Translations under genes and position numbers: made by a program
Part shown: positions 3,288 to 41,483 of the stretch, one piece after another
Position numbering within the stretch: position 1 is the stretch's first letter
Layout: each line of letters starts with the position of its first letter
From: Paenibacillus hexagrammi
Lineage (GTDB): Bacteria; Bacillota; Bacilli; Paenibacillales; NBRC-103111
Length of the DNA: 64,000 nt
Direction: 5' to 3'
Assembly: GCF_021513275.1 (NCBI RefSeq)
Contig: NZ_CP090978.1
Coordinates: 5,187,247-5,251,246, forward strand
Notes under the pieces: model-generated
Seen by the model: only the letters and a program-made list of their open reading frames with translations
Database searches by the model: none
Told to the model about the DNA's origin: nothing

Positions 3288-3456
3288 TAGAGAAGTTTCC
3301 TAGTCGTCTGTCAACCGTGAGAGCATGTCGAGCATGTTGGATTAGAATAACCCTTCCCTTTGTGAATCTAGCTTCACAGCAACTAAGAAGAAGTTCTTCA
3401 AAGTGAATTGCTCCAGGAGTTCTATGAGTTTCATGAAATTCTCCTTCTCATCTCGG

Positions 3457-4293: not shown

Positions 4294-4298
4294 ATCCG

Positions 4299-23033: not shown

Positions 23034-23149
23034 GTGTGGAGGGGGGCGGTTTGAGGGCTGGCCCCTCTTTGGGGAAAGAATATGCAGATTCATTCGGTAT
23101 GCGAATGGATTGTTGCCGTAGGAGTCGTCGTCGATAGGTTTCCATGACA

Positions 23150-23190
23150 TAAAAAATAGACTGTTGAGGTTTTCTCGACAGTCTATTTTT
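23150..23190. terminator. Bidirectional intrinsic terminator
   Basis: aaaaaatagactgtt...gacagtctatttttt palindrome flanked by A- and T-runs, between convergent genes. Confidence 0.65.
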
Positions 23191-23198
23191 TATCCCCA

Positions 23199-23498
23199 TC
23201 ATTTGTCCAGGATAGGATGTTCGTCTAGATAGTTACCTATTTCCTCAATATACTTATTACCTAAATGGTCATGAGCCATAACAAAACAGCCGCTCCAAGT
23301 ATCCCATCCAAGAGTGATCCTAATTCCATCCTTAACAAAGTCCATGAACGCTTGTTCAATTCCTACGGCTGGGTTAGCATGAGTAAAGTGGAACTTTTCT
23401 GTGACTATCTTAGCTATCTTAAAAATAAATGACGCGTCAGCATCCAGTAACTCATATGAATTGTAACCATTGGCGGTTATATAAAATTTACCACTCAA
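23199..23498 (-). CDS. Hypothetical small protein (99 aa)
   Basis: Intact ORF with no recognisable motif; last gene of a minus-strand cluster after the ParE/Phd genes. Confidence 0.4.
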   Translation of the reverse strand: MSGKFYITANGYNSYELLDADASFIFKIAKIVTEKFHFTHANPAVGIEQAFMDFVKDGIRITLGWDTWSGCFVMAHDHLGNKYIEEIGNYLDEHPILDK

Positions 23499-23552
23499 AA
23501 AACCAACCTATCTGGGTCAGCAATATGTAATTACGGGGACTTTTAACCCCAG

Positions 23553-23864
23553 CTAAATTAATTCTTCAAAGTTTCGTTTTCCATATAAAACTCTCCTAAT
23601 TTCCACGATATTGTCATATACGACGTAGAATACAAGATAATTTTCAACTACCAGTACCCGGTATTCATCCTCAAGCCTGTGATTATTTCGATATAGGTGT
23701 CCAGATAATAGGAATTTCTCCAAATTGGAAATGGCCTTATCCAGCTTATCGACAAGATCCATTGCTGCTTGTCTTGCAAAAAGCTGATTGCTAACGTAAT
23801 CAACAATTCCTCTTAAATCTGAACGAGCCAGTTCGATATAACATAATGTATACTTATTTTCCAT
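23553..23864 (-). CDS. parE: Type II toxin, ParE/RelE superfamily
   Basis: 103 aa with a ParE-like C-terminus ('VVYDNIVEIRRVLYGKRNFE'). Confidence 0.6.
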   Translation of the reverse strand: MENKYTLCYIELARSDLRGIVDYVSNQLFARQAAMDLVDKLDKAISNLEKFLLSGHLYRNNHRLEDEYRVLVVENYLVFYVVYDNIVEIRRVLYGKRNFEELI

Positions 23865-24092
23865 CTGCGCTCCCTTTAGCTTGAAATATTGAAACTAATT
23901 GCTCAATCAAAAAGAGCTGAATTCAAGTTGTTCCATTCTAGAGAAGCCAATCAGCTTGATTGCGGTTATTAAGGAATTAAAAAAGAACTAGCAGGTTGCA
24001 CGCCACCTACCAGTTCTAGATCAGTTTATTGCGTGAAAGAGCTCAATGGTTCTCATGTAAAGCCGTTTCCACGAGTTTCTTGTTACTTTAGC

Positions 24093-24365
24093 TCATTCAC
24101 CTTGTTTGAGTTGTCTTTTCAACTGATCGAACACTACAGCATGGCTGTACCGTACTTTGGAATTCTTTGCTTCTAATTCTGCTTCTTTCAGTTTTATATA
24201 AATCTCATTTCCGGACTGAATGCTCTCATATTGTTCTATGCTCATAACCACCATATCACCATGCCCATTTTTAGTAAGAAAAACGGGTTCACGGCTTTCG
24301 TGGACTATCTTAGAAATTTCAGCAAAATTGTTTCTTAGGTCAGAGACAGGTCTGATTTGCGGCAT
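24093..24365 (-). CDS. Type II antitoxin, Phd/YefM family
   Basis: 'MPQIRPVSDLRNNFAEISKIVHESREPVFLTKNGHGDMVVMSIEQYESI' is a classic Phd/YefM N-terminus. A 228-bp gap to parE is unusually long for a TA pair. Confidence 0.65.
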   Translation of the reverse strand: MPQIRPVSDLRNNFAEISKIVHESREPVFLTKNGHGDMVVMSIEQYESIQSGNEIYIKLKEAELEAKNSKVRYSHAVVFDQLKRQLKQGE

Positions 24366-24489: not shown

Positions 24490-25606
24490 TTATCTGGATT
24501 CAGAAGAAGTTTCCCGAAACGGCCTAAGAAACGGCTTAGGGATATCTGTTTCAAACCGCAAGAGGTGGCCTTGTACGGGATGTGTGAAAGCTAACACTCG
24601 AGCGTGGAGGCCCAATCGTCTCAATTCCTTTGACTTGGAGCCATATTTTTTATCTCCCACAATGGGATGCCCAATGTCTTGCATGTGGACGCGAATTTGA
24701 TTTTTTTCGCCCTGTTTCGAGTTGGACTTCCAGTAAGCTAAAGTTACTATTGGACTGCACAGTTTTGTAATGTGTCACGGCGTGTTGGCCGTCGTTAGGA
24801 CGATGACTGGAATACATCTTTAGTGTGCTGCTTTCTTTCAACCAAGACGAAATCGTACCTTCCGGTTTCTTCACTCTGCCTTCAACCAATGCAACGTACG
24901 TACGCTCCTTAACGATGTCCTGCCAGGAGTTCTGAAGCAATTGTTGGACCCTTTCGCTCTTGGCGAACATCATCACACCGGAAGTATCTCGATCTAGACG
25001 ATGAACAACAAAAACCCTGCTTCCAGGATCTTTCATTCGAACATGAGCCATGAGCTGTCGGTAAGCCGTCACTTCGGTTTCTTGAGGAGAAGCGATCGAC
25101 AGTAGACCGGCTTCTTTGTGAATGACGATAATATCCTCGTCCTCATGCAGGATCTTTAGCCCGACCAGCATCGGTTCCTCAACAACTTTATCCTTACTAA
25201 TAGTTACCGTTTGTCCAGGTTCAAGGGGATAATTGTATGCTGTCTCGACCCGATCGTTAACGGTTACTTGTCCACGAGCCAGTAAGGCTTTGACAGAGTT
25301 CCGACCGAGTTTGGATTGTTTATGCAATAAAAAAAGCAGCAGTTCCGTTGGCTCTTCAACGGTATATTGACTGATATTGGGACGATTGGGAGCCTCCTGC
25401 TTGCCTCCCTTGCTGCTCGAATTGCCACCGAACTTCGAATTCCCCATCTGTTTCTTCCTATTTGAGCTTGCCGGTGCGCCTTTTACAGCGTTCATATTTC
25501 CCTTCTCCTGCCTTGCTTTTCCTGGTCCCGCTCCATGTGATGTTTTCCGTGAGCCGCTGCTAGCTCCACGCGTTAGCGGCTGTGACTTTTTTGATCCTTG
25601 CGTCAT
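24490..25606 (-). pseudogene. RluA-family (RluD-like) pseudouridine synthase with S4 domain and ~90-aa basic N-terminal extension; frameshifted at an 8-nt poly-T tract (~24697-24704)
   Basis: 'HRLDRDTSGV' catalytic motif in ORF 24650..25606. The C-terminal 'HMQDIGHPIVGDKKYG...LHAR' continues in the overlapping ORF 24490..24684. Confidence 0.7.
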
Positions 25607-25827: not shown

Positions 25828-26650
25828 ATGAGAGAAACGTTAGCTAGAAATATTAGCAGGTACCGCAAAGACAAAGGCCTTACCCAAGATGAGCTGGCCC
25901 GGGTACTTGGACTTTCTTTTCAAGCGGTGTCCAAATGGGAGAATGCCCAGACCATGCCTGATATCACGCTGCTGCCGCAGCTATCCCAAATTTTAGAGGT
26001 AAGCATCGACAAGCTTCTGGGATATGTGTCGCAAGATAAGTCCATTACGATCTACGAGGAAGAATATAAAACGCAGGACTATTACTGGGGAACCGAGCCT
26101 AATTCGGCTTGCTTTCAGGTTTTTCAGACCATGCCGCCAACGAAGCGTCTGAAATTATTAGATATTGGCTGCGGTGAGGGAAAGGATGCCGTGTTTTTTT
26201 GCTAGAAATGGCTATGAGGTGACTGCCTTTGATATTTCCGATGCGGGGATTGAAAAGACGAAACGACTAGCCGATGCGGCCCGAGTTCATGTTCATGTGT
26301 TTAAAGCGGATCTTGCCGACTATCGTTTGGACACTTCGTTCGATATCCTGTTTTCAAGCGGCGTGCTGCACTACATCAAACCGGAGCTTCGCGGGGAAAT
26401 ATTCACGAACTACAAGCAGTTTACGAATCCGAATGGGTTGCATGCTCTGAATGTTTTTGTTACAAAGCCTTTTATTGCTCCGCCGCCGGAAAAGGAACCC
26501 AATGCGTTCCCTTGGCACTCGGGAGAACTGCTGGCTCATTATCATGATTGGAGGATTGGGGATAGTTCAGAGGTTATATTCGACTGTCATTCATCGGGTA
26601 TTCCTCATCAACATGCGATGACGAAAATCATGGCGAAGAAGGTTGTTTAG
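25828..26650 (+). pseudogene. XRE-family HTH fused to SAM-dependent methyltransferase (TehB-like), split by a frameshift at a T7 run (~26195-26201)
   Basis: N-terminal HTH ('LTQDELARVLGLSFQAVSKWEN'). MTase motif I 'LLDIGCGEGKDAVFF' at the end of ORF 1 continues as 'ARNGYEVTAFDIS' at the start of ORF 2. Confidence 0.7.
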
Positions 26651-26765: not shown

Positions 26766-29700
26766 CTATTCAAACGCCTCATTTCTATTACTGTCCCGTG
26801 TCTGTTCCCATTCTCTCACTTTTCGAATGCTTTGCTCAAAATTAACTTCTTCTTTTATTGCCCACTCAGCTACCATGACGTTTTCATGGCCTTTAAGTTC
26901 AGTTAGTAAAGCTAGACGAGTCTGTAAAATATTAGCTAGGGATCCACTCCATGATGGTGGTCTAAAAGATTCTTTGAAATGATTAAGTACTTCTACAGGG
27001 CTTGGCGCTTGTATAATAAATTGTTTTGCTAATTTTGTCCAACAAACTACCCCATTATCTTCCATCGATTTATAAGGCATAAGTATTGAAGCAGCTGTTA
27101 TGAACCTTTGTGTAGGTTCTTCTTTACACCAATCGAGAAGTATTTCATCATCAATATGTGCTAATGGATTTTTAGGTCTAATACTATGGAAGATCCAATA
27201 CATATCGTCTATTGTTTCCTCGTTCAGAAACGTATCCATGAAAACAATTGGTTGGGTAGCTGCAAGTGCCACGAGCACATCGTCATAATCCGTGGAATAA
27301 ATGTCGTGCTCTATGAATGCTTTAAGAAGTCTCGAGCATAAAAATCGAACCAGTTCCGTTGAACCTCTATCTTTCATACAAATTTTTATGATTGTCGACA
27401 GCTTTGAATCCAAACTATGAATAGAGTTATCTTTTCGTAAAAAAAGATAACGAGAAATAAGCTCATAAGCAGACTCCTTGATAATTTTACTTATTTGATC
27501 AACATTCTGTCGGTGAATTCTCATATATAGAAGTTCAATAGATACAGTTATCCCTTCTTCATTATTAGAAATTAATGTTAGTAGTTCTGAAAGCTCAAAA
27601 TCACTAATTTCATGCCTTCTTGCATAAGCTAATTGTCTATACATCCACATAGGTGCTTTCCCAACTACTAGTGATTGCTTAAGTCTTTCAACACCTTTTG
27701 AATCTAACTGCGTGCTACTCTGTAATAAAGGAAAAGCTGCACTCCATACTGGATCGACAACTGCTGTATTCAAAAGATCGTTACATAATTGTGTATCTCT
27801 AAGAGACAGCTCATCTAAAAATCCTCCAACAGCTTGATAGTTACGTTTTGATTCATCAATTTTTTGCAAATAGATTCTTAAGATCTCCCATACCATTTTA
27901 GGGTTACTACACCCTTCAGCGAGACCTTGACCGAAATAAAATAATCTATTCCCTGATTCAGATAAGAGCTCTGGAAGCAATTCTATATAAATTTCCTCGT
28001 TCAGGCCTACTTCCTTACCTATTGATCGTGTTATTTTATCTACCATTTCATAACTTTTTTCGGGATCTTCGTCGTCATCTTCAAGTACATCAATTAAATC
28101 GTATGGATGACCTTTTGAAAAAGCGTACAATCTTGCTCGCTCAATTAACGTTGATGGTATTAGTATACGTTCCAATTCTTCTAATTGTTTTATTATTTCA
28201 GTACTCATTTCCTTGTTATCATACCTGAGGATGGACTTTACAGCTATCCATCCCTCTTTCCATACAAATTTCTTCGAGATAGTGATAGCAGCCGAATATA
28301 ATTCGTCGAACATACCAACACCTACCCAGAGTTCCCTAAACCTTTCAGCTAATAGATTCATTGCTTTGTTCGAGAACCCCAAATCTGAGATACTAACGTT
28401 AACAGCATAGTCAATAAACAACTTGAACCATCGAATTACTCCATCATTTGTTTGAGGGAAATAACCATAGTCCCTTGAATGTGCACCAAATTCGAAATCA
28501 TTATATGAACTAATACTCCATGCTTGGAGAGAAGCACTTAACAAAGAGAATCCTAACTCAATCTTTTCGTTTTGCTTTGAATACAACAACCTCTCAATGA
28601 CACTTAGCCTCTGAACGGCCGTAGCATGAGTACCCGAAAGCTTTATATAAAACAGCGATTGGAGCGATTTTCTTATAGAGTTCTGATTTTCATTCTGTCT
28701 TTCTGATAACGCAAAGTGGCAAAGTAAATCAGTTGATCGGATAAACATTTCTTTTTCATATGCTAAAGACCTCAAAAGTCTCGTAATTTGTAAATAATGA
28801 TGGTTCTCGCGACTAAAAAACCACTCGCTTCCTTTTTTATTAGCTGCTCTTTCAATTGCTTCTAGTGTTTTTTCAGGATCAATAGGCGCAACATTAATTA
28901 ATAAATCTATCCCTAATGAGTCTAAACTCAAAACATCCCCCAAAAGTCCTTCTTCAACTAACCACATTCTACTTATTTCCCTTGCCGCTTTGCAATCATG
29001 AAGGTATCTAAGACGTCGGGAGAATGATCTCATAAGTCTTTCTGATGCCCGATTTCCAAAAATATTCAAGATAAACTCAACAGGAATATCTTCAAGTGCA
29101 CGTTTTGCCAACCTGTTAGCAACAGCATGTGGCAACACTGCTCTCCATATGCCACGTTGCTGAACTAACTCGCGGCGTTGTAATTCCTTAACAAATTGAT
29201 ATAGTTTCAGCACGGGGATTCCTATAATAGAGCTTAGGATTTCTAATTCACCATCTTTACCTTGATCAATTTGGCAGTTAAAAGAATAAACAAGTGAACA
29301 AACCTTAGCAACACTAAATAGATCATCACTAGGCTCATTTCGCTGTAAAAATAATCTCGTGAATAGATCCTCATCCTTTAGATGAGAAACATCATCACCG
29401 TGAGAAATCGTTTTACATAGTGCGATAGCAATACGTGCATTTCCTCCTGAAAAATTAGCAACAATTCTAGTACAAACTTCATTAATATGCGGAAAGCGAA
29501 TCTGAATAACCTTTTCCACTATTTCCTTAGAAGCAGGTTCTAATCGAAAAACCTCTGTTTCTTCCGGTTGATCTTCTCTTACATCATATTCAATAGTAAT
29601 CAAACTTACTTGACTACCATTTGCCAAACATATTGTTGTTAGTGGCTTATGCAAACTCGGTGGACAATTATCGATTGCCAATAAAGAATATTTTCGAGTA

Positions 29701-30569
29701 GCTACTAATTGTTCAGCAAAATTCTGCGGATCCGGGATAGGACGATTAGCGATATCGCAATAAAAAACTTTGGTCTTGTCTAAGGCGTTTTCTCCGATCC
29801 TTTCATCAAATAGCGCTTGCAATAACCGCGTTTTACCAACTCCAGACAGGCCAACTAAACGTACTACAGATCCAGGCTTATTTAGAGTTACACGAAGATT
29901 GTTTATACCATCTTTAACAGATAGCCCTTCGGATAGACGTGTTGTACTACTATACAGACGAATGTGACCATCTGTAAGATACTCTTCGTTCAATTCTCCT
30001 AAGGGATTAGACCAATTCTCAAAAGGCCTCCAACCTTGAATCGGACGACCTATCTTACCTCTAACCCAAAGAATAAGTGAAGGATGACATCTCACCCAGG
30101 CAGCTACTCTATCCCGGTCATAAAAATCGAGTTTTATCGTTGCTGCATACGGACTGTCTGAGATTGCTTCCTGCATCGCCCTTCTTCTCTTCATAAGTGC
30201 TAAATCTGATGTAGAGCCTTGACTACTTACAATGATATATGCACCATTAGCAGCAGCTAATTCATTAATTACTTCGCGCAATTCTCCATCTGGGCGCATT
30301 TCTTCTTTTATTTTCGCGGATGGCATATCAGGTTTCTTTACTTGAAATCCAGTATTTGACCGTGGTATGTAACTATCATTATGAAATGTTGAGTTCAGTT
30401 CAACCCTAACATCTAATCCCCCATCTTTGGCATTATGATGTCCACCCCAAGTTACACCCGATGTTGGTAATCCTATAGAATACAATTCAGCCTCACATAA
30501 AAGTCCGATAAGTGCCCGAAGATCAACATCACTTAAGTGTTTTATATCTTCTCCAGAAATTTCAAGCAT
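26766..30569 (-). CDS. STAND-class NTPase (1267 aa) with N-terminal Mrr-like PD-(D/E)xK nuclease domain and C-terminal helical repeats; Avs-like anti-phage candidate
   Basis: N-terminal 'AKDGGLDVRVE...GFQVKK' matches the Mrr catalytic (DGG.D...Q.K) pattern. Walker A 'GLSGVGKTRL', Walker B 'LLAIDNC', then >800 aa of alpha-helical repeats. The gene is markedly AT-rich relative to its flanks. Confidence 0.5.
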   Translation of the reverse strand: MLEISGEDIKHLSDVDLRALIGLLCEAELYSIGLPTSGVTWGGHHNAKDGGLDVRVELNSTFHNDSYIPRSNTGFQVKKPDMPSAKIKEEMRPDGELREVINELAAANGAYIIVSSQGSTSDLALMKRRRAMQEAISDSPYAATIKLDFYDRDRVAAWVRCHPSLILWVRGKIGRPIQGWRPFENWSNPLGELNEEYLTDGHIRLYSSTTRLSEGLSVKDGINNLRVTLNKPGSVVRLVGLSGVGKTRLLQALFDERIGENALDKTKVFYCDIANRPIPDPQNFAEQLVATRKYSLLAIDNCPPSLHKPLTTICLANGSQVSLITIEYDVREDQPEETEVFRLEPASKEIVEKVIQIRFPHINEVCTRIVANFSGGNARIAIALCKTISHGDDVSHLKDEDLFTRLFLQRNEPSDDLFSVAKVCSLVYSFNCQIDQGKDGELEILSSIIGIPVLKLYQFVKELQRRELVQQRGIWRAVLPHAVANRLAKRALEDIPVEFILNIFGNRASERLMRSFSRRLRYLHDCKAAREISRMWLVEEGLLGDVLSLDSLGIDLLINVAPIDPEKTLEAIERAANKKGSEWFFSRENHHYLQITRLLRSLAYEKEMFIRSTDLLCHFALSERQNENQNSIRKSLQSLFYIKLSGTHATAVQRLSVIERLLYSKQNEKIELGFSLLSASLQAWSISSYNDFEFGAHSRDYGYFPQTNDGVIRWFKLFIDYAVNVSISDLGFSNKAMNLLAERFRELWVGVGMFDELYSAAITISKKFVWKEGWIAVKSILRYDNKEMSTEIIKQLEELERILIPSTLIERARLYAFSKGHPYDLIDVLEDDDEDPEKSYEMVDKITRSIGKEVGLNEEIYIELLPELLSESGNRLFYFGQGLAEGCSNPKMVWEILRIYLQKIDESKRNYQAVGGFLDELSLRDTQLCNDLLNTAVVDPVWSAAFPLLQSSTQLDSKGVERLKQSLVVGKAPMWMYRQLAYARRHEISDFELSELLTLISNNEEGITVSIELLYMRIHRQNVDQISKIIKESAYELISRYLFLRKDNSIHSLDSKLSTIIKICMKDRGSTELVRFLCSRLLKAFIEHDIYSTDYDDVLVALAATQPIVFMDTFLNEETIDDMYWIFHSIRPKNPLAHIDDEILLDWCKEEPTQRFITAASILMPYKSMEDNGVVCWTKLAKQFIIQAPSPVEVLNHFKESFRPPSWSGSLANILQTRLALLTELKGHENVMVAEWAIKEEVNFEQSIRKVREWEQTRDSNRNEAFE

Positions 30570-30735
30570 GATCAGCTGTCACCCCTATTTCAAACGACTA
30601 AATTCTCTTTTTTCAATACTAGGCTCATGTTATTTATCAAAATTCTTATTCTCCATTTATGAAAATTGTTTACTAGAACAAGAATAAACCGTCCTTTCAC
30701 TTATCTCGTGATAGACGGTAAAATTAAAACCGGAT

Positions 30736-31131
30736 TTATATTTTTATTAAAGAAACACCAAGCTCGTTTTGGACAAAATTCATATCGGAATCTCGAGACA
30801 ATAAAGTTAATTCATTAACCATAGCAGTTGCAATAATGATAGCATCAGGTGTTTTAAGCTTACGCCTTTTTGCTTTCTGCTCCCTACGAATGATCCCGGC
30901 TAGCTTTGCACTCTCCGAAGTCACCTCTAAACATCTCCTTGAGGTAAATAGCTTTTCTGCACGCAGTTGTTCCTCTGGTTTTAAACCCGCGAATACTTCA
31001 CATTCTGTAATCGTAGAAAAGTAGATAGACATTTTATCTCTCGCAGCTTGCTTGATAAAATCGATTACGTTTTTCTCGTTAATCAATATGGCTATCGCGA
31101 TATTTGTGTCAAGTAAATAACCTCGACTCAT
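30736..31131 (-). CDS. vapC: PIN-domain toxin VapC
   Basis: 'YLLDTNIAIA' N-terminal PIN acidic motif and 'DAIIIATA' C-terminal motif. Confidence 0.75.
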   Translation of the reverse strand: MSRGYLLDTNIAIAILINEKNVIDFIKQAARDKMSIYFSTITECEVFAGLKPEEQLRAEKLFTSRRCLEVTSESAKLAGIIRREQKAKRRKLKTPDAIIIATAMVNELTLLSRDSDMNFVQNELGVSLIKI

Positions 31132-31361
31132 GAATCCCATTCCTCACGTGAGCGTTTCACTTCATCAAGTAGTTCTTTGCCTCTGTCCGGTGTTAAAGTC
31201 CCCGCAGCCTCAAGAAGATCATCGATGGAATACTCATCATCTTCGGCTTCAACGGTTTGTCTTTCAAGATCAATGGTCACCCGGGAGTGAGTTATCTGAA
31301 ATTTTTGAAGCATAACTTTAATAGCATTTGCAGTTTGAAGATCAATCTTTTTGGGGATCAA
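31128..31361 (-). CDS. vapB: Putative VapB-type antitoxin
   Basis: Small acidic protein directly upstream of vapC with a 4-nt overlap. Confidence 0.45.
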   Translation of the reverse strand: MIPKKIDLQTANAIKVMLQKFQITHSRVTIDLERQTVEAEDDEYSIDDLLEAAGTLTPDRGKELLDEVKRSREEWDS

Positions 31362-31444
31362 CGGTATCCCTCCAATCCCTTTTTATATATTCATTATACC
31401 ACATGCTTTCATGCCACAGACACCAATACGCTCATGGCTCCCCC

Positions 31445-32557
31445 TTATCCTGCCTGCTTACCCCCACCTAACAGCGAATTCAGCTGCTCCAGCAGATTGC
31501 CTCCGCCTGTAAGTGAAATGGTGCCGATTTTCTCGCAAATTTTCTCAAGGAATTCGAGCTCCTTCAAGCGGAACAAGGTCTGGTTCTCGTCCATCAGCTT
31601 CGCTGTATTCAGCAGGCTGCGGGTGGAGGCTGTTTCTTCACGGCGGGTGATCAGGTTCGCTTGGGCTTTCTTTTCCGCTAGAAGCACAGTGTTCAAGATC
31701 TCTTTGATATCTCCCGGAAGGATGATGTCCTTGACGCCTGCGGAAAGGAATTTGATTCCGTACTCCTCGCTTTTGTCGTTCAGACGGGATAGCACAAAGG
31801 CCGCAATCTCCTGCTTCATCCGCAGCAGATCGTCAAGCTTCAAGGTTCCTACATACTCACGGAGAATCAGCTGCAGCAGCACATAGATTTGTTCCTCAAA
31901 GGATTTGATCTCCAGCGCACGCAGCGGATCCGTGATTTGGTACTGGCAGACGAAGTTCAGGCGAAGCGTCACTTTGTCTTCCGTCATGATTTCCTGCCCG
32001 GTCATATCCAGCTGCTGCCGCCGCAAATCTACGGTATTGACCGATGCTAGGACGGGTCCCTTCCAGAAGTAATACTTCCCCGGGGTGAGCTGCTTTTGCA
32101 TCACATTGTTGTAAAAAAGCATCCCTGTCTCGTAGTTGGCCACTTCAGACGTATAGAAATAGCCTGCGACCTTCGCCAGGATCGCTCGATCTATCTCAGG
32201 TCCAATCTCAGGCTGACGGATATCGACCCGAGTAAATTCATGGCGCTTCAGCACATTCCAGAATGCATATTTGCCTGCTGTCAAAAGCGATACGAACTTC
32301 CCATCTTCATAATGAAGCGCGTACTCATGATCCTGAACATGGATGACCGTAAGCTCGTCAAGCAGCCGCTGGTCTTGTAAAAATAGGTTCAAGTCTTTCC
32401 CTTGCACATGAAAAGGCTTGGTTACATTCAATAGCACGATTTCATCATCGGAAAATGGCGCAGGACGGTAAACGCCCGGCTGCAGACGCTTCATGTAGCT
32501 GCCTTTTTTAAAGAGTAAACCTCGTTCGTCGGATTTGACGATGTATCTTTTCAACAT
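31445..32557 (-). CDS. SPFH/band-7 (slipin/YdjI-like) domain protein without obvious TM segment
   Basis: The C-terminal half shows an SPFH pattern ('KLDDLLRMKQEIAAFVLSRLNDKSEEYGIKFLSAGVKDIILPGDIKE'). The N-terminal ~170 aa form an extra domain. Confidence 0.55.
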   Translation of the reverse strand: MLKRYIVKSDERGLLFKKGSYMKRLQPGVYRPAPFSDDEIVLLNVTKPFHVQGKDLNLFLQDQRLLDELTVIHVQDHEYALHYEDGKFVSLLTAGKYAFWNVLKRHEFTRVDIRQPEIGPEIDRAILAKVAGYFYTSEVANYETGMLFYNNVMQKQLTPGKYYFWKGPVLASVNTVDLRRQQLDMTGQEIMTEDKVTLRLNFVCQYQITDPLRALEIKSFEEQIYVLLQLILREYVGTLKLDDLLRMKQEIAAFVLSRLNDKSEEYGIKFLSAGVKDIILPGDIKEILNTVLLAEKKAQANLITRREETASTRSLLNTAKLMDENQTLFRLKELEFLEKICEKIGTISLTGGGNLLEQLNSLLGGGKQAG

Positions 32558-33095: not shown

Positions 33096-33964
33096 TCAAT
33101 CCTTGTAAGGATCAAATTCGTCGGCTCCCGCCATGCATACCCCGATCGGCTTCAACACATGAAGAATTTCGATGGTTTCCGAGTGAGCATCCAGGACCTC
33201 TTGCAGCTTCCGGTACACAAAAGGACTCTCATCCGTCCCCGCGCCGCGGAGCTCTACGCCGTACTTACGGACGGCTTCCAGCATTTGTTCTATGGAGATT
33301 TGACCGCCGCTGCGGGACTTCGTTTTCCAATTCATTTTGCCGGCAGCTTGGGTACGGCTCATAATTCTACCGGCTCCATGTACGGTGCTGTAATAAGCGT
33401 CCCTGTTCTCCGCGGAATCCTTCCCCTGTACGATGACCGATATGTCCCCCATACTTCCACCAATAAAGCCCAATTGTCCTGGCGCCGAAGGCGTTGCCCC
33501 CTTGCGAACCACTACCGTCTGCTTACCTTCGTGCTCCTCCATCCAGGCAAAATTATGATGATTGTGCACCTCGAATTCCGCTTCCGCGGATCATCGAACA
33601 GCTCATGATCGACCTTCTCACTATTAGCCCGCCCTATACCAAACGAAACTTTACGTGCAATCTCATCCATCCAGCGGCTCAAGTGAGGCATTGCCTCTTG
33701 AATGTGGATATTCGTCCGAACCGCCTTGTTCCCGCAGGCAATATCATAGCCGACACCCGAGGGTGAAATTTGCCCCTCATAGGCGATCACACCGCCAATC
33801 GGCTGACTGTACCCTTTGTGATGGTCCGCCATCAGCAGAGCTTGTGCCACGCGTCCGGTGCTCGCACACATTTTGGCTTGGGCCAGTGCGCTTTCATCCG
33901 CCTTGCCCCATACTCTCACGCCATCTATCGACTGATAAGCCATGATCATCTGCTCCTTTATCAC
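33096..33964 (-). pseudogene. rtcB: rtcB RNA ligase remnant: N-terminal and C-terminal parts present, ~150-aa central region deleted, plus a frame change
   Basis: N-part 'MADHHKGYSQPIGGVIAY...GVGYDIACGN' and C-part 'EFEVHNHHNFAW...GFIGGSMGD...STVHGAGRIMSRT' align to the ends of E. coli RtcB. The GNHF/HSGSRG central motifs are missing. Confidence 0.75.
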
Positions 33965-34215: not shown

Positions 34216-34842
34216 ATGGCCAAGGAAAGCTTTGATAAAGAGATTCAATTCCTGCGTATGCTGGCGCTGACAAGCGGAGCCTACAGCAGGCAGCAATTCG
34301 CGGAGCGGCTGGGCATTTCTGTCCATACCTTTGATAAAACCATCCGCAAGCTTAAAGATGTCGTAACTACCCTCTACCAACGTCTGCCCGAAGAGCACAG
34401 CAAAGAATGGGAAGATACGCTTCAGTTCAAATATCGGGACTCAACCGATCCGATGCTCCTGTTTGTTTTCCGGGCCAAATCCGTAAAAGAATCGGAAAGC
34501 ATGCGCCTCTCGCTGATCTTGAGCGCCCTTAAGGAACAAGCGCTTACCGCTGCGGAGCTCATGGATCTATGCTCTGGTGAAATGCCTCCCGAGTCATCCC
34601 TGCCGGACGAAAAGACGATTCGAAGCGATCTCAAATATTTGGAAGAAGTCGGCGTCATTCAGCGGGAATCTCAAACCCGACCATACCGCTTCGGTATTCG
34701 GAACGACTTCCTTCAGGATTTAACGAATGAAGAACTCCTGGATCTGTATGATTTTGTAGATATCATGTCCAATACCCAAATTCCTTCCGTACAGGGCTAC
34801 CTGCTTCGGGAGGGCTTAAAAAAATCATTTTCTTCGAAATGA
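34216..34842 (+). CDS. HTH-domain transcriptional regulator (two wHTH-like segments), first gene of a WYL regulator cluster divergent from rtcB
   Basis: 'QFAERLGISVHTFDKTIRKL' and 'LTAAELMDLCSG...IRSDLKYLEEVGVI' helix-turn-helix-like segments. Confidence 0.5.
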   Translation: MAKESFDKEIQFLRMLALTSGAYSRQQFAERLGISVHTFDKTIRKLKDVVTTLYQRLPEEHSKEWEDTLQFKYRDSTDPMLLFVFRAKSVKESESMRLSLILSALKEQALTAAELMDLCSGEMPPESSLPDEKTIRSDLKYLEEVGVIQRESQTRPYRFGIRNDFLQDLTNEELLDLYDFVDIMSNTQIPSVQGYLLREGLKKSFSSK

Positions 34843-34858
34843 TGCAGCGAAGCATGTC

Positions 34859-35533
34859 ATGGAGCCATTTCAGTACAAGTATCACTATCCCTCCCGCATC
34901 CTGGATGAGGCCCATCTCTATCCGTTACTTGCTGCCATACGTAACCGGAGAAGAGTAACCTTTCTCTATTTCTCGCCCAAAACAAAGAAAAGCTACAGAG
35001 CCAAAAATACGAACCCCTTATTTGAACGTGAATCGGAGGGGGAGGGCAATCAAGTTGTGGCTACACCGCTGAAAATCGTCTACGACCATCAATATGGCCG
35101 GTGGTATTTGCTCGGTGTAGGCCGAACGGGGATTACCAAATTCCGTGTGGAGGGCATGACCCAAATTGAGGAGAAGGATGCTGTCGATGAACAGACCTTT
35201 CAAAGCCAGCTCGCCGCTTTAGAAAGAAGTATACAATACAGCTGGCTCATTGATACGGGACGAACCGTTACCGTGAAAGCCCGATTCTTTAAACCCGGTC
35301 CGTCAGACCAGGATTTTATTAAAGAGCGGGTTCTCCTCCAAGGGCAGTGGGGGCAAATCACTCAGGAAGATGAGCACTCGTTTATTTTCGAAATCGAGGT
35401 GAATGGGGTCTTGGAAATCAAGCCCTGGCTGCGAAGCTTCGGTTCGAGCTGCGAAGTGCTGGAGCCGGCGCATCTACGCCGCGAGATGATTGCCGAATGG
35501 AAGGAGATCCGCGCTTACTATGAATCTATTTGA
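34859..35533 (+). CDS. WYL-domain protein with WCX-like C-terminal extension
   Basis: 'YDHQYGRWYLLGV' WYL core and a C-terminal 'IKPWLRSFGSSCEVLEPAHLRREM' WCX-like segment. Encoded in a different frame from the upstream HTH ORF (16-nt gap). Confidence 0.65.
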   Translation: MEPFQYKYHYPSRILDEAHLYPLLAAIRNRRRVTFLYFSPKTKKSYRAKNTNPLFERESEGEGNQVVATPLKIVYDHQYGRWYLLGVGRTGITKFRVEGMTQIEEKDAVDEQTFQSQLAALERSIQYSWLIDTGRTVTVKARFFKPGPSDQDFIKERVLLQGQWGQITQEDEHSFIFEIEVNGVLEIKPWLRSFGSSCEVLEPAHLRREMIAEWKEIRAYYESI

Positions 35534-36326
35534 AAAGATTTTCAACTATCAAATTCTGTCGCGCTTAGAGGACTCCGGCACCTTCGTGGTCACCTCACAG
35601 GAACGGGCCTGGCTGCGGCTGATGCTTCAGCATCCTGCTGCCGCCGAAGCTTTCGCGCCGGATACGCTGCAGAAGCTTGCTGCCATGCTGGATGGAGACT
35701 CGCAGCTCGATGTATCGGGGCATCTGGTTGAAAAGGCGAATGTCTCCGAGCAGCCGGTATACCATCCGCTCTTGCGCCCGCTTCGGCGCCTAATTATGAA
35801 TCGATCAGGCATGCGAATTTCATACCGGTTAAAGAATGGGACGATTTGCTCCGAAGTAAGCGGACTTCCTTACCATTTAGAATATTCCATGGTCAAACGG
35901 GAATGGTATCTGCTCTGGTATCATCTCCGCCATCGTGCCTTCATGAGCACCAGACTGAACAAGATCGATTCCGTCAGCTACGAGTCCATCGACCCGGCTA
36001 CTGCCTCCGATCTTTTTGCATGGATTAAGCAAACGCTAGAAGCTAGAAAAACGGAAGTGACTGTCGAGGTAGACCGAGAGTATAACCGGGAATTATCACG
36101 GATTTTGTATGCTTTCTCCTGCTTCGACAAGGCGGTTGATTATGAGGAGAAGACGGATACTTACCGAATCCGCATTCGTTTGATGGGAGATGAGATGGAA
36201 TATTTGCTGTCTAAAATCCGCTTTCTCGGCAAGCGGGTGCGGGTCATCGAAGGCTGGTATTTGAGAAAACGGATGCTGGAGGCTTCGATGAAGGCTTTGG
36301 CGCGATATGGGGAATTGGCTGAGTGA
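35520..36326 (+). CDS. Second WYL-domain protein (PafC-like partner?)
   Basis: 'VKREWYLLWYH' WYL core and C-terminal 'GKRVRVIEGWYLRKRM'. Start set at MNLFEKIF, overlapping the upstream stop. Confidence 0.6.
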   Translation: MNLFEKIFNYQILSRLEDSGTFVVTSQERAWLRLMLQHPAAAEAFAPDTLQKLAAMLDGDSQLDVSGHLVEKANVSEQPVYHPLLRPLRRLIMNRSGMRISYRLKNGTICSEVSGLPYHLEYSMVKREWYLLWYHLRHRAFMSTRLNKIDSVSYESIDPATASDLFAWIKQTLEARKTEVTVEVDREYNRELSRILYAFSCFDKAVDYEEKTDTYRIRIRLMGDEMEYLLSKIRFLGKRVRVIEGWYLRKRMLEASMKALARYGELAE

Positions 36327-36596: not shown

Positions 36597-39500
36597 TTAC
36601 ACGTACTGTGGTCCTCTAAGCTGCTCTAGAATTTGCGGATCCTTGATCTTCGTATCTTGCGCCAGCATCACAATCTTGGACAATATCTCCGATGTTTTCG
36701 GGTCTTCGTCGATGAAGGGCAGGAACAGCTTACCTCGATGCTGGGAGTGGACCGGCAAGATATATAAGCTGCCGGCTGCTTGCTTTTGGACAGTGCCGCT
36801 TCCTAAGTGAACACCGTATTCTCCGAGAGATCCTGTAATACGGGCAAAATTCCCATCCAGACGTACATTGCCAATTTTCATCAGCCTTAAAGATTCAGTG
36901 ACGATAACTTTGCGAAGCTCGATGGTGGTCAGACTTGCTTCAGGATCGACTCCACCTGCGTGCGCCGTGCTTACTACCAAGTCTACATCGCGCATAATTT
37001 CAGAGAAGATGATGCCTGGTATCGCACTCAGCTCCAGAGGCTTATAAGTCTTCCGGTCGATAAAGGAGACGGTTTCGAGCGTTGGCGCTTCAATATCCGA
37101 TGGAGCGAACCAATCCGCCAAGGCATACACCTGCGCGATGATATTCTCCTTGTGATACACCTTCTGCAGTCCTTCTTCATAGCTGACCGTCCAGAGTCTG
37201 TTTTTCAAGAGGGCCACAGCCCGTTTAGGCTGAATTTGATGACCCGCGTATCGTCTTGAAACCGAGCCGCTCTCGAGCTCATCTTGGTTAGGCAGATACA
37301 GCTCTCTGAACACCTGCTTGAACGGCTGCTTCAACTGCTTGTCGAATAAGAATTTCTGATACTTGCTCCACTGGCCGCTTTGGTACAAATGCAAAGGGTG
37401 AGCGATGCATAGCGTATCTTCCGCGTTTAATCGATAGGTTTCACCGTCCGGGCTTTCCAAACACCCCTCTGCATAAAAGCCAAGTGCTTCACCAGTTTTA
37501 AATACAAGCGTACGAAGAATAGGCGCGATCGTCGGATTGTTCATCAAATTGGAGAGCTCATGATGGGTAAACATGCTTTCTGACTCCATGGATTTCTCAA
37601 ATTCCCGTTTGGCTCGTTTGTTTTGTTCCCTGAGGCTGCTTATGGTTTCTTTTAGAGATATCACGTAGGGATGCTTGTTATATTTCGATGGCACAGCTTT
37701 CAACGTCTTACCTTGTTTGCTTGCCTCCAGGTCCGCCCACCCGATCTCATCAATCACGATCCTCACCTGCAGCTCATCAACGGCTGTCGGTTCCAACAAA
37801 TGAAGGACATCTTCCATTTTTCTGGCTTCCATGTCCCATTTAAGTCGAATCACATCCGAATAGCCGGCATTGCGGGATAGATTATCAAGAGCAATAGCTG
37901 CAGCCTTCGCTTCACTCGCGCTGCGCTGTGCACCGAATGTTTTGCTCTCTTTGAGAAACTGCTGAATGTATTCATATCTCTCCAGCACCTCCCTGTCGCC
38001 GCTTTCACCGATCGGAATTAGACTATAGCTGAGTAAATGATCTTTATTCCGCTTGAACTCCACAGAAGTTCGAATTTCAGCTGCATCCAGCTTGCCCAGG
38101 ACAGCGTCTGCGAACAGCTGGGACCTGCGATGATTGGCTCCTGCGGATATGTATTTCGCACACTGGTACAGCATATGGAAACGTTTCTCCCCCAGTTCCC
38201 GGTACGCTTCCATAAACCAGCGGATATCAAAAGCTCCATCGTTAAACTCCGTTGGCGAGATCGAGGAATAATGAGCAACGATCGTCTCTTTCTCCGCAGA
38301 AAAGTTTTCATTCACGTGAGCATGGAAATACCAGGCGGCACTTCGCAGCCCCTCCCATTGTAAATACTCCGAAATAAGCTCGATCCATTGGGGGGCATAC
38401 ATAGCTGCTTCCAACAGCCTTTTCTCTGAAATATTTCTTCCTCGCAGCATCTCCGTAAGCTTCTGTACATCATCCCCTTCTTTCGGATGACAGACGCGAA
38501 GAAGATGGCTGAGAGCTTCTTTTTTACTTCGATTACCGTAAATGTACCCGCGCACAAACGTTTCCTGGCTCAGGGCAGTTAAAATCGCGACGAAATACTC
38601 CATACCCTCATAATAGGAGATTCCCATGGCCAGATGGGATACATCCGTTGGCAGGTCGCCCCGGTTGAGCTCCAGCTCCAGTATGACGGAAAGGATACGT
38701 TCCTTAAATCGCTGGATCGCGGGAAACTTGTTGGCAAAATCCTCCCTTTTTTCTGTGATGGTTCTCATATGCCATTGGCTTCTTCGCTCACGAATCATAA
38801 GTTCCTGATACATCGTGTTATCGTTGATAAGCCCCAACTCAAGTGCCCTGACAAGGTCCTTTAGCTCAAGACGAAACTCTTCGTAGTCTGTTAGGATATC
38901 GAGATTGAGCTTCATAGCATAATACTCCAAAAACGAGCGATCGTCATAAACGGCATTGCCTGCCCAAGAGATCCACGGCGAATAAAAGAAGCCCCATGCT
39001 TTCGAACTGTCCTTAACATCCTGCTTCTGTAGAGCATTGATGATTTTATTTAAGATCCTGCTTGATATAGTGAAGCGTTCTTGGATATCACTGTCATGAA
39101 AATAGGCGAATACGAGAGAGTGAACCTGCTGCATATACTCGAGATTGGCGCTAAAGTCGAAGAAAGTATGGATCGTTTTCATCGGATATAGCTTAGATAA
39201 AACCTTCTTCCCCCATTCTCCAAGGGGCTTATAGCGGTTTACTTCCCAGCCTGTCAGCTTATCTGCATCGTATTTATACAAGGAATCGGAGCTAAGATAA
39301 AAGACGATTTGAATCAGCTCTTTGGCTGTAAAGCCGCTTTCTCTTAAGTATTGGTCCCATACCTCCGCCAATGGATACCCTTCCAAGTGCGATGCTTCGT
39401 GATCCTGCTTCTGGAAACCCTTTAGCCGATCAAGCCGTGCTCCCAGCAACAAGCTTTCCTTGCTCCCGCTGTATCTTTCACATTTGTATTCATAATCTCT

Positions 39501-41483
39501 GTGCTTATGAACCAGCTCCGACAAGCCTTGTAAAAACGCCTTGATCTTGTCGGCTGACAGGTCAAAGAAATCCTTGACTTGAATCTCAGCATAATCGTGC
39601 AGCTTATAAAGCTCCTGCTTCTTATGCGGATCGTATAAACCGAACCCGCTATGCAGCCCCAATTGTTCCTTCTGGCGTAGTCGTTCTACCAGCGGTCGTT
39701 CTTTATCGGAGGGTTCTTGAATAGCTGCTAAATGATGACTAACCTGCTCAAACTGTGCATGCCTTTCCTCATCTTCCTTCAGCACACAGAGCATTTCGAG
39801 CGCACCTAACCGCTGTAATTCAAGCGGACTATCCAGCAGCGTCTCAAGAGATTGATCTAACAGCTCGTGGTCTTGCTTCAAAAGGATCTTCATAGCGCTT
39901 TGACGCAGCGCGCCGGTCTTCAGCTTCAACAGACCTTGAACGGTTACGGTGTCCTGTGGGGTAAGGCGCATGTTATGAATACGCTTCAATGCTGCCTCGC
40001 GATTGGTCATACTTTTATCCGATAAGGAATCAAAAAGGAACTGCCTCTGCACAGGATTGTCTGCATCGCTGGTAAATGTTTGGATCAATGCGTTGCGCAG
40101 GTCCGGGCTAACCCGATCCTTGAGGGCAATGACCTGAGCGATCATTTCCGCATCCAGATCATAAGCCGCGAGATAAAGCATTTTGTTCGCTATAGCGTCC
40201 GTGGTGTGCGAGTATGCCATCCAATCAAAAACCTTCGATTGTTCGGTCACTTCCTGCTTAGGCATGTTCAACAGCATCGTTCTAAATTGATGAAATTGAC
40301 GAATTCGCAGCTCTTTATCCTCTAGCGTTTGGACCCGATCCAAGGTCGGTTTATGCTTAAGGACCTCATAGTCCGGATGCGAGCGCCAGACACTCGACCA
40401 TTTGTACACATAGTTTCGAATAACAAGCGACTGCAGCTCAAGTTCGGTCTGCTCGATATAGGGAAAAGCAAGCGCAAACCTTAGTGCATCATTTTGGCTT
40501 TGCAACAGGAAATATTGCGCCGCGATTTTTTGGTACGTGTCTCCCTGCTCCATGATGTGGCGCATCGGTTCTGGAAGATGATTCTCTTCCCTGACAGCAG
40601 TCGCCCAAAGGGAAAAATAAAGCTTATGCACATTCGGATCTTTGGCCCATTCCTTGCACCGCTCCTCATCACATAAACACTCGTATGCATACTCGACGCA
40701 CTGCTTAACCACTCTCGTGTTGGCTGCCTCCAGTGCTAAACCCGTCCATACATCCAGCGCACGGATGACAGAGCTATACCGAATAAAGTCATGATCGATA
40801 ATGATCTTGAGCATGAATGTAAATGCTTCCAGGGTACCTTCATCCATAGACTCTACGATGCTTTGGCGAAGTCCCTCCTGCAGCCGCGCTGCGATCAGCA
40901 TTTGTCCTAGCATCTGGTGGGCTTCTGCTTGGTGACTGAAGACAATGCCGCGAATCATCGCCCGATTGAGGAGAGCGGTATTGTTGTCTCCAAACAAAAT
41001 GTCCTTCAGGGCATCAAAGACCTGCCGGTTATTTTGATCCAGTTCATAGGCAAGTATATAGGAAACCATGGAGCTGTCAGCCAGATTGGCTGGTCTGGTC
41101 GTCGTGAGATAGTCTAGGAGAGAAAATTCCGACTTGGTGAGATCGTAGAGGGCGTAAAGCTTGCGAACCATGCCTTCCACATGAACACGCAAATTCTTGG
41201 TCCGAAACGGCCGGCGCGAATATCCGATACTGTAGGGGTAGTCAGTTATGTGCGTGGCTAAATAGCTCATGACCTGCGCCTCGTAATCCCCTGCCTTTTG
41301 TTTCACGATAGAGATAAGAGGGGCAAAATATGACTCCTGCTTCCCCTTCGCATCAATCTCGTTGAGAAGCGTTTCGATCTCCTTGTAAGCCAAACGTCGC
41401 TCGTACGGTTTTTTCTCTAAATTCTCCTGTATGAGTTGCTCCAACTTCTTGGTCGCTTCATCTTTGCGCTGAAAGAATAGCAT
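36597..41483 (-). CDS. Giant cytoplasmic protein (1628 aa) of unknown function with helical-repeat body and a DUF4132-like C-terminal region (YehI/MolR-like)
   Basis: No signal peptide or TM segment. Long alpha-helical repeat composition. The C-terminal ~200 aa resemble DUF4132-type proteins; this is recalled from memory, not computed. Confidence 0.4.
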   Translation of the reverse strand: MLFFQRKDEATKKLEQLIQENLEKKPYERRLAYKEIETLLNEIDAKGKQESYFAPLISIVKQKAGDYEAQVMSYLATHITDYPYSIGYSRRPFRTKNLRVHVEGMVRKLYALYDLTKSEFSLLDYLTTTRPANLADSSMVSYILAYELDQNNRQVFDALKDILFGDNNTALLNRAMIRGIVFSHQAEAHQMLGQMLIAARLQEGLRQSIVESMDEGTLEAFTFMLKIIIDHDFIRYSSVIRALDVWTGLALEAANTRVVKQCVEYAYECLCDEERCKEWAKDPNVHKLYFSLWATAVREENHLPEPMRHIMEQGDTYQKIAAQYFLLQSQNDALRFALAFPYIEQTELELQSLVIRNYVYKWSSVWRSHPDYEVLKHKPTLDRVQTLEDKELRIRQFHQFRTMLLNMPKQEVTEQSKVFDWMAYSHTTDAIANKMLYLAAYDLDAEMIAQVIALKDRVSPDLRNALIQTFTSDADNPVQRQFLFDSLSDKSMTNREAALKRIHNMRLTPQDTVTVQGLLKLKTGALRQSAMKILLKQDHELLDQSLETLLDSPLELQRLGALEMLCVLKEDEERHAQFEQVSHHLAAIQEPSDKERPLVERLRQKEQLGLHSGFGLYDPHKKQELYKLHDYAEIQVKDFFDLSADKIKAFLQGLSELVHKHRDYEYKCERYSGSKESLLLGARLDRLKGFQKQDHEASHLEGYPLAEVWDQYLRESGFTAKELIQIVFYLSSDSLYKYDADKLTGWEVNRYKPLGEWGKKVLSKLYPMKTIHTFFDFSANLEYMQQVHSLVFAYFHDSDIQERFTISSRILNKIINALQKQDVKDSSKAWGFFYSPWISWAGNAVYDDRSFLEYYAMKLNLDILTDYEEFRLELKDLVRALELGLINDNTMYQELMIRERRSQWHMRTITEKREDFANKFPAIQRFKERILSVILELELNRGDLPTDVSHLAMGISYYEGMEYFVAILTALSQETFVRGYIYGNRSKKEALSHLLRVCHPKEGDDVQKLTEMLRGRNISEKRLLEAAMYAPQWIELISEYLQWEGLRSAAWYFHAHVNENFSAEKETIVAHYSSISPTEFNDGAFDIRWFMEAYRELGEKRFHMLYQCAKYISAGANHRRSQLFADAVLGKLDAAEIRTSVEFKRNKDHLLSYSLIPIGESGDREVLERYEYIQQFLKESKTFGAQRSASEAKAAAIALDNLSRNAGYSDVIRLKWDMEARKMEDVLHLLEPTAVDELQVRIVIDEIGWADLEASKQGKTLKAVPSKYNKHPYVISLKETISSLREQNKRAKREFEKSMESESMFTHHELSNLMNNPTIAPILRTLVFKTGEALGFYAEGCLESPDGETYRLNAEDTLCIAHPLHLYQSGQWSKYQKFLFDKQLKQPFKQVFRELYLPNQDELESGSVSRRYAGHQIQPKRAVALLKNRLWTVSYEEGLQKVYHKENIIAQVYALADWFAPSDIEAPTLETVSFIDRKTYKPLELSAIPGIIFSEIMRDVDLVVSTAHAGGVDPEASLTTIELRKVIVTESLRLMKIGNVRLDGNFARITGSLGEYGVHLGSGTVQKQAAGSLYILPVHSQHRGKLFLPFIDEDPKTSEILSKIVMLAQDTKIKDPQILEQLRGPQYV

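Follow-up and report, generated by a model that had tools for sequence, protein, structure and literature searches.

A probable Paenibacillus copy of the phage-defense sensor Avs8 (PD-lambda-4)

Introduction

Avs8A of E. coli (PD-lambda-4 A; WP_000963924.1) defends by itself against lambda, its neighbor Avs8B being dispensable (Vassallo et al., 2022, PMC9519451; bioRxiv 10.1101/2025.07.02.662641; bioRxiv 10.64898/2026.01.04.697583). The protein binds gpE with a KD of ~127 nM and the Bas21 capsid protein with one of ~14 nM, accepts capsid proteins that share little sequence identity with one another, is not triggered by assembled capsids, and together with capsid protein catalyzes a Mg2+/ATP-dependent degradation of dsDNA; defense is lost in mutants of its nuclease active site. 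A tetramer is predicted for it, and, unlike Avs4, it may need ATP hydrolysis. Sensing of the capsid protein was confirmed in an independent screen (Lee et al.). Avs8 has so far been characterized in E. coli only and is described as abundant in Gammaproteobacteria; Vassallo et al. (PMC9519451) do not discuss PD-lambda-4 by name in their main text, and Avs8 is unmentioned in the accessible part of the supplements of Lee et al.

Four other STAND receptors differ from Avs8A in their trigger or in their sensor architecture. The nuclease-STAND-TPR AVAST receptors Avs3 (SeAvs3, PDB 8DGC) and Avs4 (EcAvs4, PDB 8DGF) are triggered by terminase and portal, respectively, whereas the trigger of E. coli Avs8A is the capsid protein (Lee et al.). 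Avs7 and Avs10 are likewise STAND receptors that sense capsid, wrapping the A-domain of the HK97 capsid protein at the interface that forms pentons and hexons, with Avs7 additionally incorporating EF-Tu; their sensor architectures differ according to Lee et al., and it is on this description that we set them apart. Here, we describe a gene of Paenibacillus hexagrammi, hereafter avs8, whose product is very probably an intact copy of Avs8, a known single-protein phage-defense sensor, in a Gram-positive host of the Bacillota.

Results and discussion

A full-length Avs8A homolog in Paenibacillus hexagrammi

We analyzed a 64,000-nt stretch of the P. hexagrammi chromosome (NZ_CP090978.1, positions 5,187,247 to 5,251,246; the window), in which the ORF list and its translation place the avs8 coding sequence at 26766..30569 on the minus strand, with an ATG start codon and 1267 codons followed by a stop codon. 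At 37% GC, the composition of this region, a codon is a stop with probability 0.075, and an open run of 1267 codons would arise by chance with a probability of ~1.6e-43. The product is 100% identical to a P. hexagrammi hypothetical protein; its database entry bears the label 'hypothetical' and no annotated function.

The PADLOC model for PD-Lambda-4_A (PDLC03991) aligns with residues 1-1267 of this protein over positions 3-1283 of its 1283 (E=0, 1028 bits), and both nested PD-Lambda-4_A models also recover it, making three models in all; PDLC03991 scores the E. coli reference at 2532 bits and close homologs from Bacillota and Methylobacter at 1055-1086 bits. A BLASTP alignment with E. coli Avs8A (WP_000963924.1) contains 403/1262 identical positions (32%), 50% positives and 3% gaps (622 bits, E=0). 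The two proteins are of the same length class (1267 versus 1283 aa), share the order of their three domains, and have identical residues in the nuclease D..D..QxK motif, Walker A and Walker B. The full-length profile match and the end-to-end homology to a characterized protein thus establish family membership directly for the Paenibacillus protein, bearing out a preliminary description of it as an Avs-like antiviral STAND protein. The novelty which that description implied does not stand: avs8 represents no novel type of system, the trigger, mechanism and architecture of the family having already been demonstrated, and it raises no new question. What is gained is a function for a protein whose database record reads only 'hypothetical'.

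The E. coli reference was reached via tblastn to plasmids, which led to an Enterobacter mori homolog, followed by blastn; the locus thus found (NZ_CP027394.1) carries exactly the published Avs8A and Avs8B accessions. The avs8 gene itself has no match in 5,426 E. coli genomes by megablast and blastn, and its protein none by tblastn in 50,697 phage records. Within PADLOC, the protein matches no defense family besides PD-Lambda-4_A at E<=1, the Avs1-5 and bNACHT profiles included; a profile search of PDB sequences recovered no significant match, the Avs3, Avs4 and Avs5 entries included, and an NCBIfam search returned noise only. Hence the Paenibacillus protein has no detectable sequence similarity to Avs3 and Avs4, and its resemblance to the earlier AVAST families (Avs1-5) and bNACHT is one of structure and architecture only.

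Domain architecture and conserved residues

All three domains of the tripartite organization proposed in the preliminary description (Mrr-type nuclease, STAND NTPase and helical-repeat sensor) were recovered by structure prediction and motifs, and the motifs that it quoted are all present in the translation. The N-terminal effector domain (aa 1-200; 29970..30569, minus strand) is predicted to form, over aa 1 to ~175, an alpha-beta-beta-beta-alpha-beta nuclease core. It contains KDGGLD...FQVKK at aa 48-79, within which lies the predicted catalytic motif D49-G-G-x-D53...Q76-x-K78 (30336..30425, minus strand), identified from its invariance and its position in the model: none of D49, G50, G51, D53, Q76 and K78 varies across 35 sequences, with E. 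coli Avs8A and an Enterobacter homolog among them, and D49..D53 and Q76/K78 sit at the ends of model strands 2 and 3. By this model, the N-terminus has a PD-(D/E)xK fold with conserved active-site residues. The Mrr-type signature, as previously described, holds at the level of fold and motif and fails at that of sequence: Pfam Mrr_cat (PF04471) does not match the full-length protein at E<=1, 17 isolated N-terminal domains match neither Mrr_cat nor another PD-(D/E)xK family in Pfam at E<=10, and the nuclease-domain profile shows no similarity to EcoKMrr in hhalign (probability 0.7%). The label therefore rests on the fold, the D..QxK motif and published annotation. The two nucleases also differ in their deployment, Mrr being a modification-dependent type IV restriction endonuclease and the avs8 nuclease an effector under a STAND switch.

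The central module comprises a predicted P-loop NTPase core (nucleotide-binding domain, aa 231-350; 29520..29879, minus strand), followed by the STAND helical and winged-helix domains (aa 351-500; 29070..29519, minus strand), delineated by the model and conserved residues. The model shows a P-loop alpha/beta core over ~aa 231-350, then the helical domain and the winged helix, with helices and a beta hairpin in model residues 148-280. Walker A (G240-L-S-G-V-G-K-T-R248; 29826..29852, minus strand) falls within GLSGVGKTRL (aa 240-249), and the Walker B strand is LLAIDNC (L296-L-A-I-D300-N-C302; 29664..29684, minus strand; strand at model residues 95-100). Across the 35 sequences, G240, L241, S242, G243, G245, K246, T247 and R248 of Walker A and D300, N301 and C302 of Walker B are invariant, as are G376, N377, R379, L479, P480 and A482 of the following region, with H481 nearly so. 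The latter residues belong to a GxP-like GGNARIA motif and a conserved L-P-H-A after the wing, which we take to be the STAND GxP and MHD-like motifs. The structural matches of the NTPase model include Apaf-1/Dark, CED-4, Avs5, plant NLRs, SeAvs3 and 6MFV, and on this modeled structure the NTPase is STAND/AAA+-like.

Some STAND NTPases with helical repeats are transcription regulators, and Pfam by itself, yielding for this protein only the weak and generic matches AAA_16 and NPHP3_N, would accommodate a non-defense role such as that of a MalT/AfsR-like signal-transducing regulator. However, Pfam finds no DNA-binding output domain of the transcription-factor kind (LuxR-type HTH or SARP); the N-terminus instead has the nuclease fold with its conserved active site, the homology to an experimentally proven defense protein is full-length, and homologs occur in defense islands. 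A regulatory STAND protein is thus exceedingly improbable, and we reject this reading as effectively refuted by the missing output HTH and the conserved nuclease site.

The remainder of the protein (aa 501-1267; 26769..29069, minus strand) is a C-terminal sensor that structure prediction confidently models, from ~aa 500 to 1267, as entirely alpha-helical repeats of the HEAT/ARM/TPR-like type. A search with the sensor alone retrieved 2230 cluster representatives, most of the same architecture; in some proteins the same sensor is instead fused to another N-terminal module, either a DUF676/PGAP1 hydrolase or a LexA HTH, and these fusions fit a modular effector-NTPase-sensor design.

Proposed mechanism and the target of the sensor

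For the trigger, oligomerization, DNase output and abortive infection, we extrapolate from the E. coli homolog, our structure models of the Paenibacillus protein being of single chains; its domain folds and its intact catalytic and nucleotide-binding residues are established on the protein itself. By this analogy, we propose that the C-terminal solenoid would wrap around the HK97-fold major capsid protein that an infecting tailed phage has just produced and not yet assembled, and that this binding would lift the autoinhibition of the STAND NTPase. With ATP and Mg2+, the NTPase would then drive oligomerization, bringing together the N-terminal PD-(D/E)xK domains (D49/D53/Q76/K78) for an indiscriminate degradation of dsDNA, whereby the infection would be aborted and the cell sacrificed.

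The sensor is also where the Bacillota clade might depart from its E. coli counterpart, keeping the Avs8 chassis and nuclease output and sensing a phage protein or surface other than the HK97 major capsid protein. Identity to E. coli Avs8A drops to 18% over residues 801-1100, where conservation within the close clade is likewise lowest (40%), and target divergence is possible within Avs sensor families (Lee et al.). Against this, the sensor is colinear with that of E. coli Avs8A through to the C-terminus with few gaps and matches the three nested models; moreover, a single sensor type dominates most defense STAND clades and Avs sensors recognize conserved folds rather than sequence (Lee et al.), and the E. 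coli protein already tolerates capsid sequences with little resemblance to one another. Retargeting, whether toward another phage protein or, via a different interface, toward the capsid proteins of Gram-positive phages, is accordingly unlikely, though it deserves some weight; if true, the Bacillota clade would be a functionally distinct Avs subfamily and not a plain ortholog.

Upstream region and genomic context

The coding sequence is preceded by an AT-rich intergenic region of 166 nt (30570..30735, minus strand; sequence reading) that holds a ribosome-binding site, a Shine-Dalgarno-like AGGGGTGA at 30579-30586. A consensus scan for promoters and terminators turned up no strong or clear avs8 promoter here, its sites being no more numerous than in shuffled controls; avs8's own promoter is presumed to lie in this gap.

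The absence of a promoter match, along with the degraded look of some neighbors (split RtcB fragments and a frameshifted HTH-methyltransferase), would be in keeping with a relic that no longer functions in defense, left in a variable region undergoing decay. However, the 1267-codon frame is intact, and its product aligns end to end with homologs, starting at residue 1, and keeps every invariant catalytic and nucleotide-binding residue. With frame and motifs intact, we rejected a pseudogene and regard a relic as highly improbable.

The functional Avs8 homolog favored here has as its upstream neighbor a PIN-domain (VapC-like) ORF on the same strand (30736-31140; Pfam PIN, E=1.4e-14), in front of which a 77-aa vapB-like ORF, again on the same strand (31128-31361), overlaps vapC (ATGA). 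The 77-aa ORF matches no family, so only its position marks it as a putative antitoxin. The three adjacent genes share a low GC content over 26.8-31.3 kb, and this arrangement, with the PIN domain confirmed, could be read as one multi-gene defense module in which, for example, the PIN toxin is a second effector or regulator. Yet a PIN/VapB pair lies beside the gene at 0/8 homolog loci from other taxa (L001-L006, L008-L010), the neighbors differing every time; furthermore, the vapB-like ORF comes with an extended -10 element (TGGTATAAT) and a ribosome-binding site of its own, the 166-nt gap separates vapC from avs8, and E. coli Avs8A acts alone. We consequently rejected a composite vapBC-Avs8 system, its neighbors not being conserved, and consider such a module very improbable. 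For the same reason, the flanking vapBC, earlier adduced as a defense context and real as regards the PIN ORF, lends weak support; the defense islands of the homologs are the stronger contextual evidence, with the Bacillus cereus homolog sitting between McrBC and GmrSD and that of P. tianjinensis near pPIWI-RE and a zeta toxin.

The avs8 gene lies in a patch of 36-40% GC in a chromosome of ~50% GC and was horizontally acquired. In E. coli, the Avs8A locus belongs to an ssrA-integrated island; avs8 does not, and its location is chromosomal. A search of the borders of the low-GC patch revealed no convincing direct or inverted repeats, and the sole tRNA in the window (3691-3780) is far from avs8.

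Absence of Avs8B and the Bacillota clade

In the PD-lambda-4 system as first defined, Avs8B is encoded immediately downstream of Avs8A, whereas no Avs8B follows the Paenibacillus avs8. The PD-Lambda-4_B model (PDLC03992), which recovers E. coli Avs8B at 2e-164, has no match among the ORFs flanking avs8, a tblastn search of Avs8B against the whole window gave a best E-value of 7.2, and Avs8B has no match at any other homolog locus. Given the dispensability of Avs8B in E. coli, its absence counts against the two-gene (A + B) definition and not against Avs8A membership, and its consistent absence from the Bacillota clade supports Avs8 as a single-gene system. The avs8 gene needs no conserved partner gene, and its product, like E. 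coli Avs8A, should work without one. Detection rules that demand both PD-lambda-4 genes exist, and tools using them could miss the avs8 locus, which suggests that such rules would under-count Avs8.

The capsid-sensing Avs8 family now has a large, well-conserved clade in Bacillota, distinct from the enterobacterial one; identity is ~50% among its members and ~32% between the two clades. Its taxonomic span takes in Paenibacillus, Bacillus, Clostridium, Desulfosporosinus and others.

An Avs8 ortholog in Paenibacillus hexagrammi

Occupying 30569 to 26766 of the minus strand, the avs8 ORF is a single, uninterrupted frame of 1267 codons, with an ATG start and a Shine-Dalgarno-like AGGGGTGA 10 nt upstream; at the local composition (37% GC), the probability of such a length without a stop arising by chance is ~1e-43. 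Its product, which matches a Paenibacillus hexagrammi 'hypothetical protein' at 100% identity, recovers nothing but sub-threshold generic P-loop matches from Pfam and NCBIfam, and no solved structure is detectable for it by sequence. The PADLOC model PD-Lambda-4_A spans residues 1 to 1267 (E=0, 1028 bits), with no other PADLOC defense family at E<=1; this end-to-end match supports the Avs-like affiliation advanced in the preliminary description, which had named PADLOC as a check. PD-lambda-4 came from an E. coli fosmid selection (Vassallo et al. 2022), has since been renamed Avs8, and, according to the literature, combines a STAND NTPase with a nuclease of the Mrr family at the N-terminus. The window protein is an ortholog, from a Gram-positive clade, of a defense protein with an established trigger and mechanism, and it holds little significance beyond annotation.

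Domain architecture and conserved motifs

The motifs on which the preliminary description relied are all present, namely DGGLD...QVKK (aa 49-79), GLSGVGKTRL (aa 240-249), and LLAIDNC (aa 296-302). An alignment of 35 sequences (the window protein, the E. coli A protein Avs8A, an Enterobacter homolog, and 32 Bacillota-type homologs) shows invariance of the D...QxK nuclease site (D49, G50, G51, D53, Q76, and K78), Walker A (G240-L-S-G-x-G-K-T-R248), Walker B (D300-N-C302), a GGNAR motif (aa 375-379), and L479-P-(H)-A482 directly past the winged helix. The predicted structure of aa 201-1267, comprising the NTPase and sensor (pLDDT 82.8), begins with a P-loop core of five strands, continues through a helical domain and a winged helix, and ends in ~770 residues of helical repeats. 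Foldseek searches with this model return as top matches a solved STAND-TPR protein (6MFV) and SeAvs3 (8DGC), with importins, CAND1, and further HEAT/ARM solenoids ranked below them. The N-terminal domain has no sequence match to Pfam Mrr_cat or EcoKMrr; it is Mrr-like by its fold, the QxK motif, and the published annotation of E. coli Avs8A. The originally suggested architecture and its interpretation, viz., nuclease, STAND NTPase, and helical-repeat sensor, are correct: the N-terminus is not of a non-nuclease type, nor is the STAND module of the transcription-regulator type. What the window protein itself shows directly is its family membership, its folds, and the integrity of its motifs.

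Relationship to the E. coli system

The characterized reference was reached via a plasmid tblastn that recovered an Enterobacter mori homolog, whose gene in turn retrieved 176 E. coli chromosomes by blastn. The match in E. coli O104:H4 is annotated WP_000963924.1, followed by WP_000443183.1, the same pair of accessions given for ECOR07 Avs8A and Avs8B in the experimental paper. The window protein and E. coli Avs8A share 32% identity and 50% positives with 3% gaps over 1262 residues (622 bits, E=0); by region, identity ranges from 44% (NTPase core) through 36% (nuclease) and 34% (initial part of the sensor) down to just 18% over aa 801-1100. The reference operon (NZ_CP027394.1; locus L007, 1-13634) lies in an island integrated beside ssrA (tmRNA) with an adjacent integrase, and just upstream of it is a divergent gene for a 1248-aa hypothetical protein (1787-5533).

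Avs8 was originally defined in E. coli as a two-gene operon, in which Avs8A alone provides full lambda defense and Avs8B is dispensable. The PADLOC PD-Lambda-4_B model recognizes E. coli Avs8B at 2e-164 and has no match among the ORFs flanking avs8 in the window; in a tblastn of the whole 64-kb window with Avs8B, the lowest E is 7.2. Among the homolog loci retrieved, Avs8B is present at the E. coli locus only; across Bacillota, where it is widespread, Avs8 is strictly a single-gene system.

Family size, effector swapping, and gene neighborhoods

A word-indexed search with the window protein recovers >4,000 homologs, the nearest non-self one being 55% identical; 41 plasmids carry homologs and none occurs in phage records. 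An exhaustive search with the sensor (aa 501-1267) over representatives of 50%-identity clusters yields 2,230 representatives, of which 857 reach E<=1e-30. Almost all have a length of 1250-1290 aa and a sensor beginning near residue 505, and a minority are ~90 aa longer. The five longer relatives checked (P0129, P0138, P0197, P0198, and P0218) keep the Avs8 sensor and NTPase; in four, an N-terminal DUF676/PGAP1-like α/β-hydrolase replaces the nuclease, and the remaining one has a LexA-type DNA-binding HTH. These are effector-swapped Avs8 variants, of which we find no mention in the literature consulted; exchanging effectors while the NTPase-sensor chassis stays constant is what one would expect of Avs receptors.

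Neighbors differ from one another in every homolog locus examined: a Tn7-like TnsA gene and HTH genes (P. eucommiae), a deaminase-domain protein and a Ser/Thr kinase (Clostridium), housekeeping genes (a Methylobacter metagenome contig), Fic and RES proteins (an Enterobacter plasmid), and a zeta toxin and pPIWI-RE (P. tianjinensis). In B. cereus (L009, 937-11338, and L010), the homolog has McrBC (carrying DUF8426 at the N-terminus) and GmrSD as its two neighbors, and together they make up a compact island of nuclease-based defenses. No partner gene is conserved beside the homologs, several of which lie inside recognizable defense islands.

Proposed mechanism

E. coli Avs8A binds lambda gpE (KD ~127 nM) and the Bas21 capsid protein (~14 nM), and in the presence of capsid protein degrades linear dsDNA, requiring Mg2+ and ATP, for which AMP-PNP does not substitute. 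Assembled virions leave it inactive, and nuclease active-site mutants lose defense. It is predicted to form a tetramer, AF3 yields complexes with diverse HK97-fold coat proteins and not with other coat proteins, and an independent genetic screen indicates that Avs8 senses capsid proteins at the A-domain penton/hexon-forming face. Given this published mechanism, we propose the same for the Paenibacillus protein: its solenoid would capture unassembled capsid protein, upon which the STAND module might switch on and oligomerize with ATP; destruction of DNA by the clustered PD-(D/E)xK domains could then abort the infection. Trigger, oligomerization, and output are here extrapolated from a 32%-identical homolog, and the trigger is the main uncertainty.

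Genomic surroundings of avs8

The avs8 gene lies within a 36-40% GC patch (~26.8-31.3 kb) of a ~50% GC chromosome. Searches around it for flanking repeats, an integrase, and a nearby tRNA found no island border. The flanking vapBC reported earlier holds insofar as a PIN-domain (VapC-like) ORF (30736-31140, minus) in the same patch, preceded with an ATGA overlap by a 77-aa ORF without a family match (31128-31361, minus), adjoins avs8. This pair is absent beside every homolog examined and is separate from avs8: we reject it as an avs8 component and regard it as a neighbor only, based on its own extended -10 element (TGGTATAAT, near 31388-31396), its own ribosome-binding site, and the 166 nt separating it from avs8. 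Directly upstream of the vapB-like ORF is a gene of normal (~50%) GC for a 370-aa SPFH/Band-7 protein (31445-32557, minus) with no defense-family match. Converging on the avs8 3' end are an XRE-type HTH ORF (25828-26205, plus) and, overlapping it in another frame, a TehB-like SAM-methyltransferase ORF (26165-26650, plus), which together read like a single HTH-methyltransferase gene that a frameshift near 26165-26205 has interrupted.

Beyond these is an RluA-type pseudouridine synthase ORF (24650-25606, minus) whose K/G/S-rich, low-complexity N-terminal extension (~90 aa) is unusually long and whose C-terminal tail is odd and may reflect a frameshift. The minus-strand stretch 23199-24365 holds another toxin-antitoxin pair, made up of ParE (23553-23864) and Phd/YefM (24093-24365), together with an unassigned 99-aa ORF (23199-23498); these genes lie in a further low-GC (~37%) patch, at whose edge is a 20-nt perfect-like hairpin (23149-23193). 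On the other side, two overlapping RtcB RNA ligase ORFs (33096-33964, minus), covering only profile positions 6-97 (N-terminal) and 278-424 (C-terminal), look like a pseudogene with an internal deletion and frameshift. Three WYL-domain ORFs in a row (34216-36326, plus) are convergent with a gene for a 1628-aa protein (36597-41483, minus) combining DUF5724 (E=0), DUF4132, and DUF7737, with no PADLOC match. Three very large SLH-domain cell-surface proteins (10492-15021, 42195-45407, and 45592-50757; all minus), one with prenyltransferase/α-macroglobulin-like repeats and DUF4430 and one an S8 subtilase, mark the chromosome around avs8 as ordinary Paenibacillus accessory genome.
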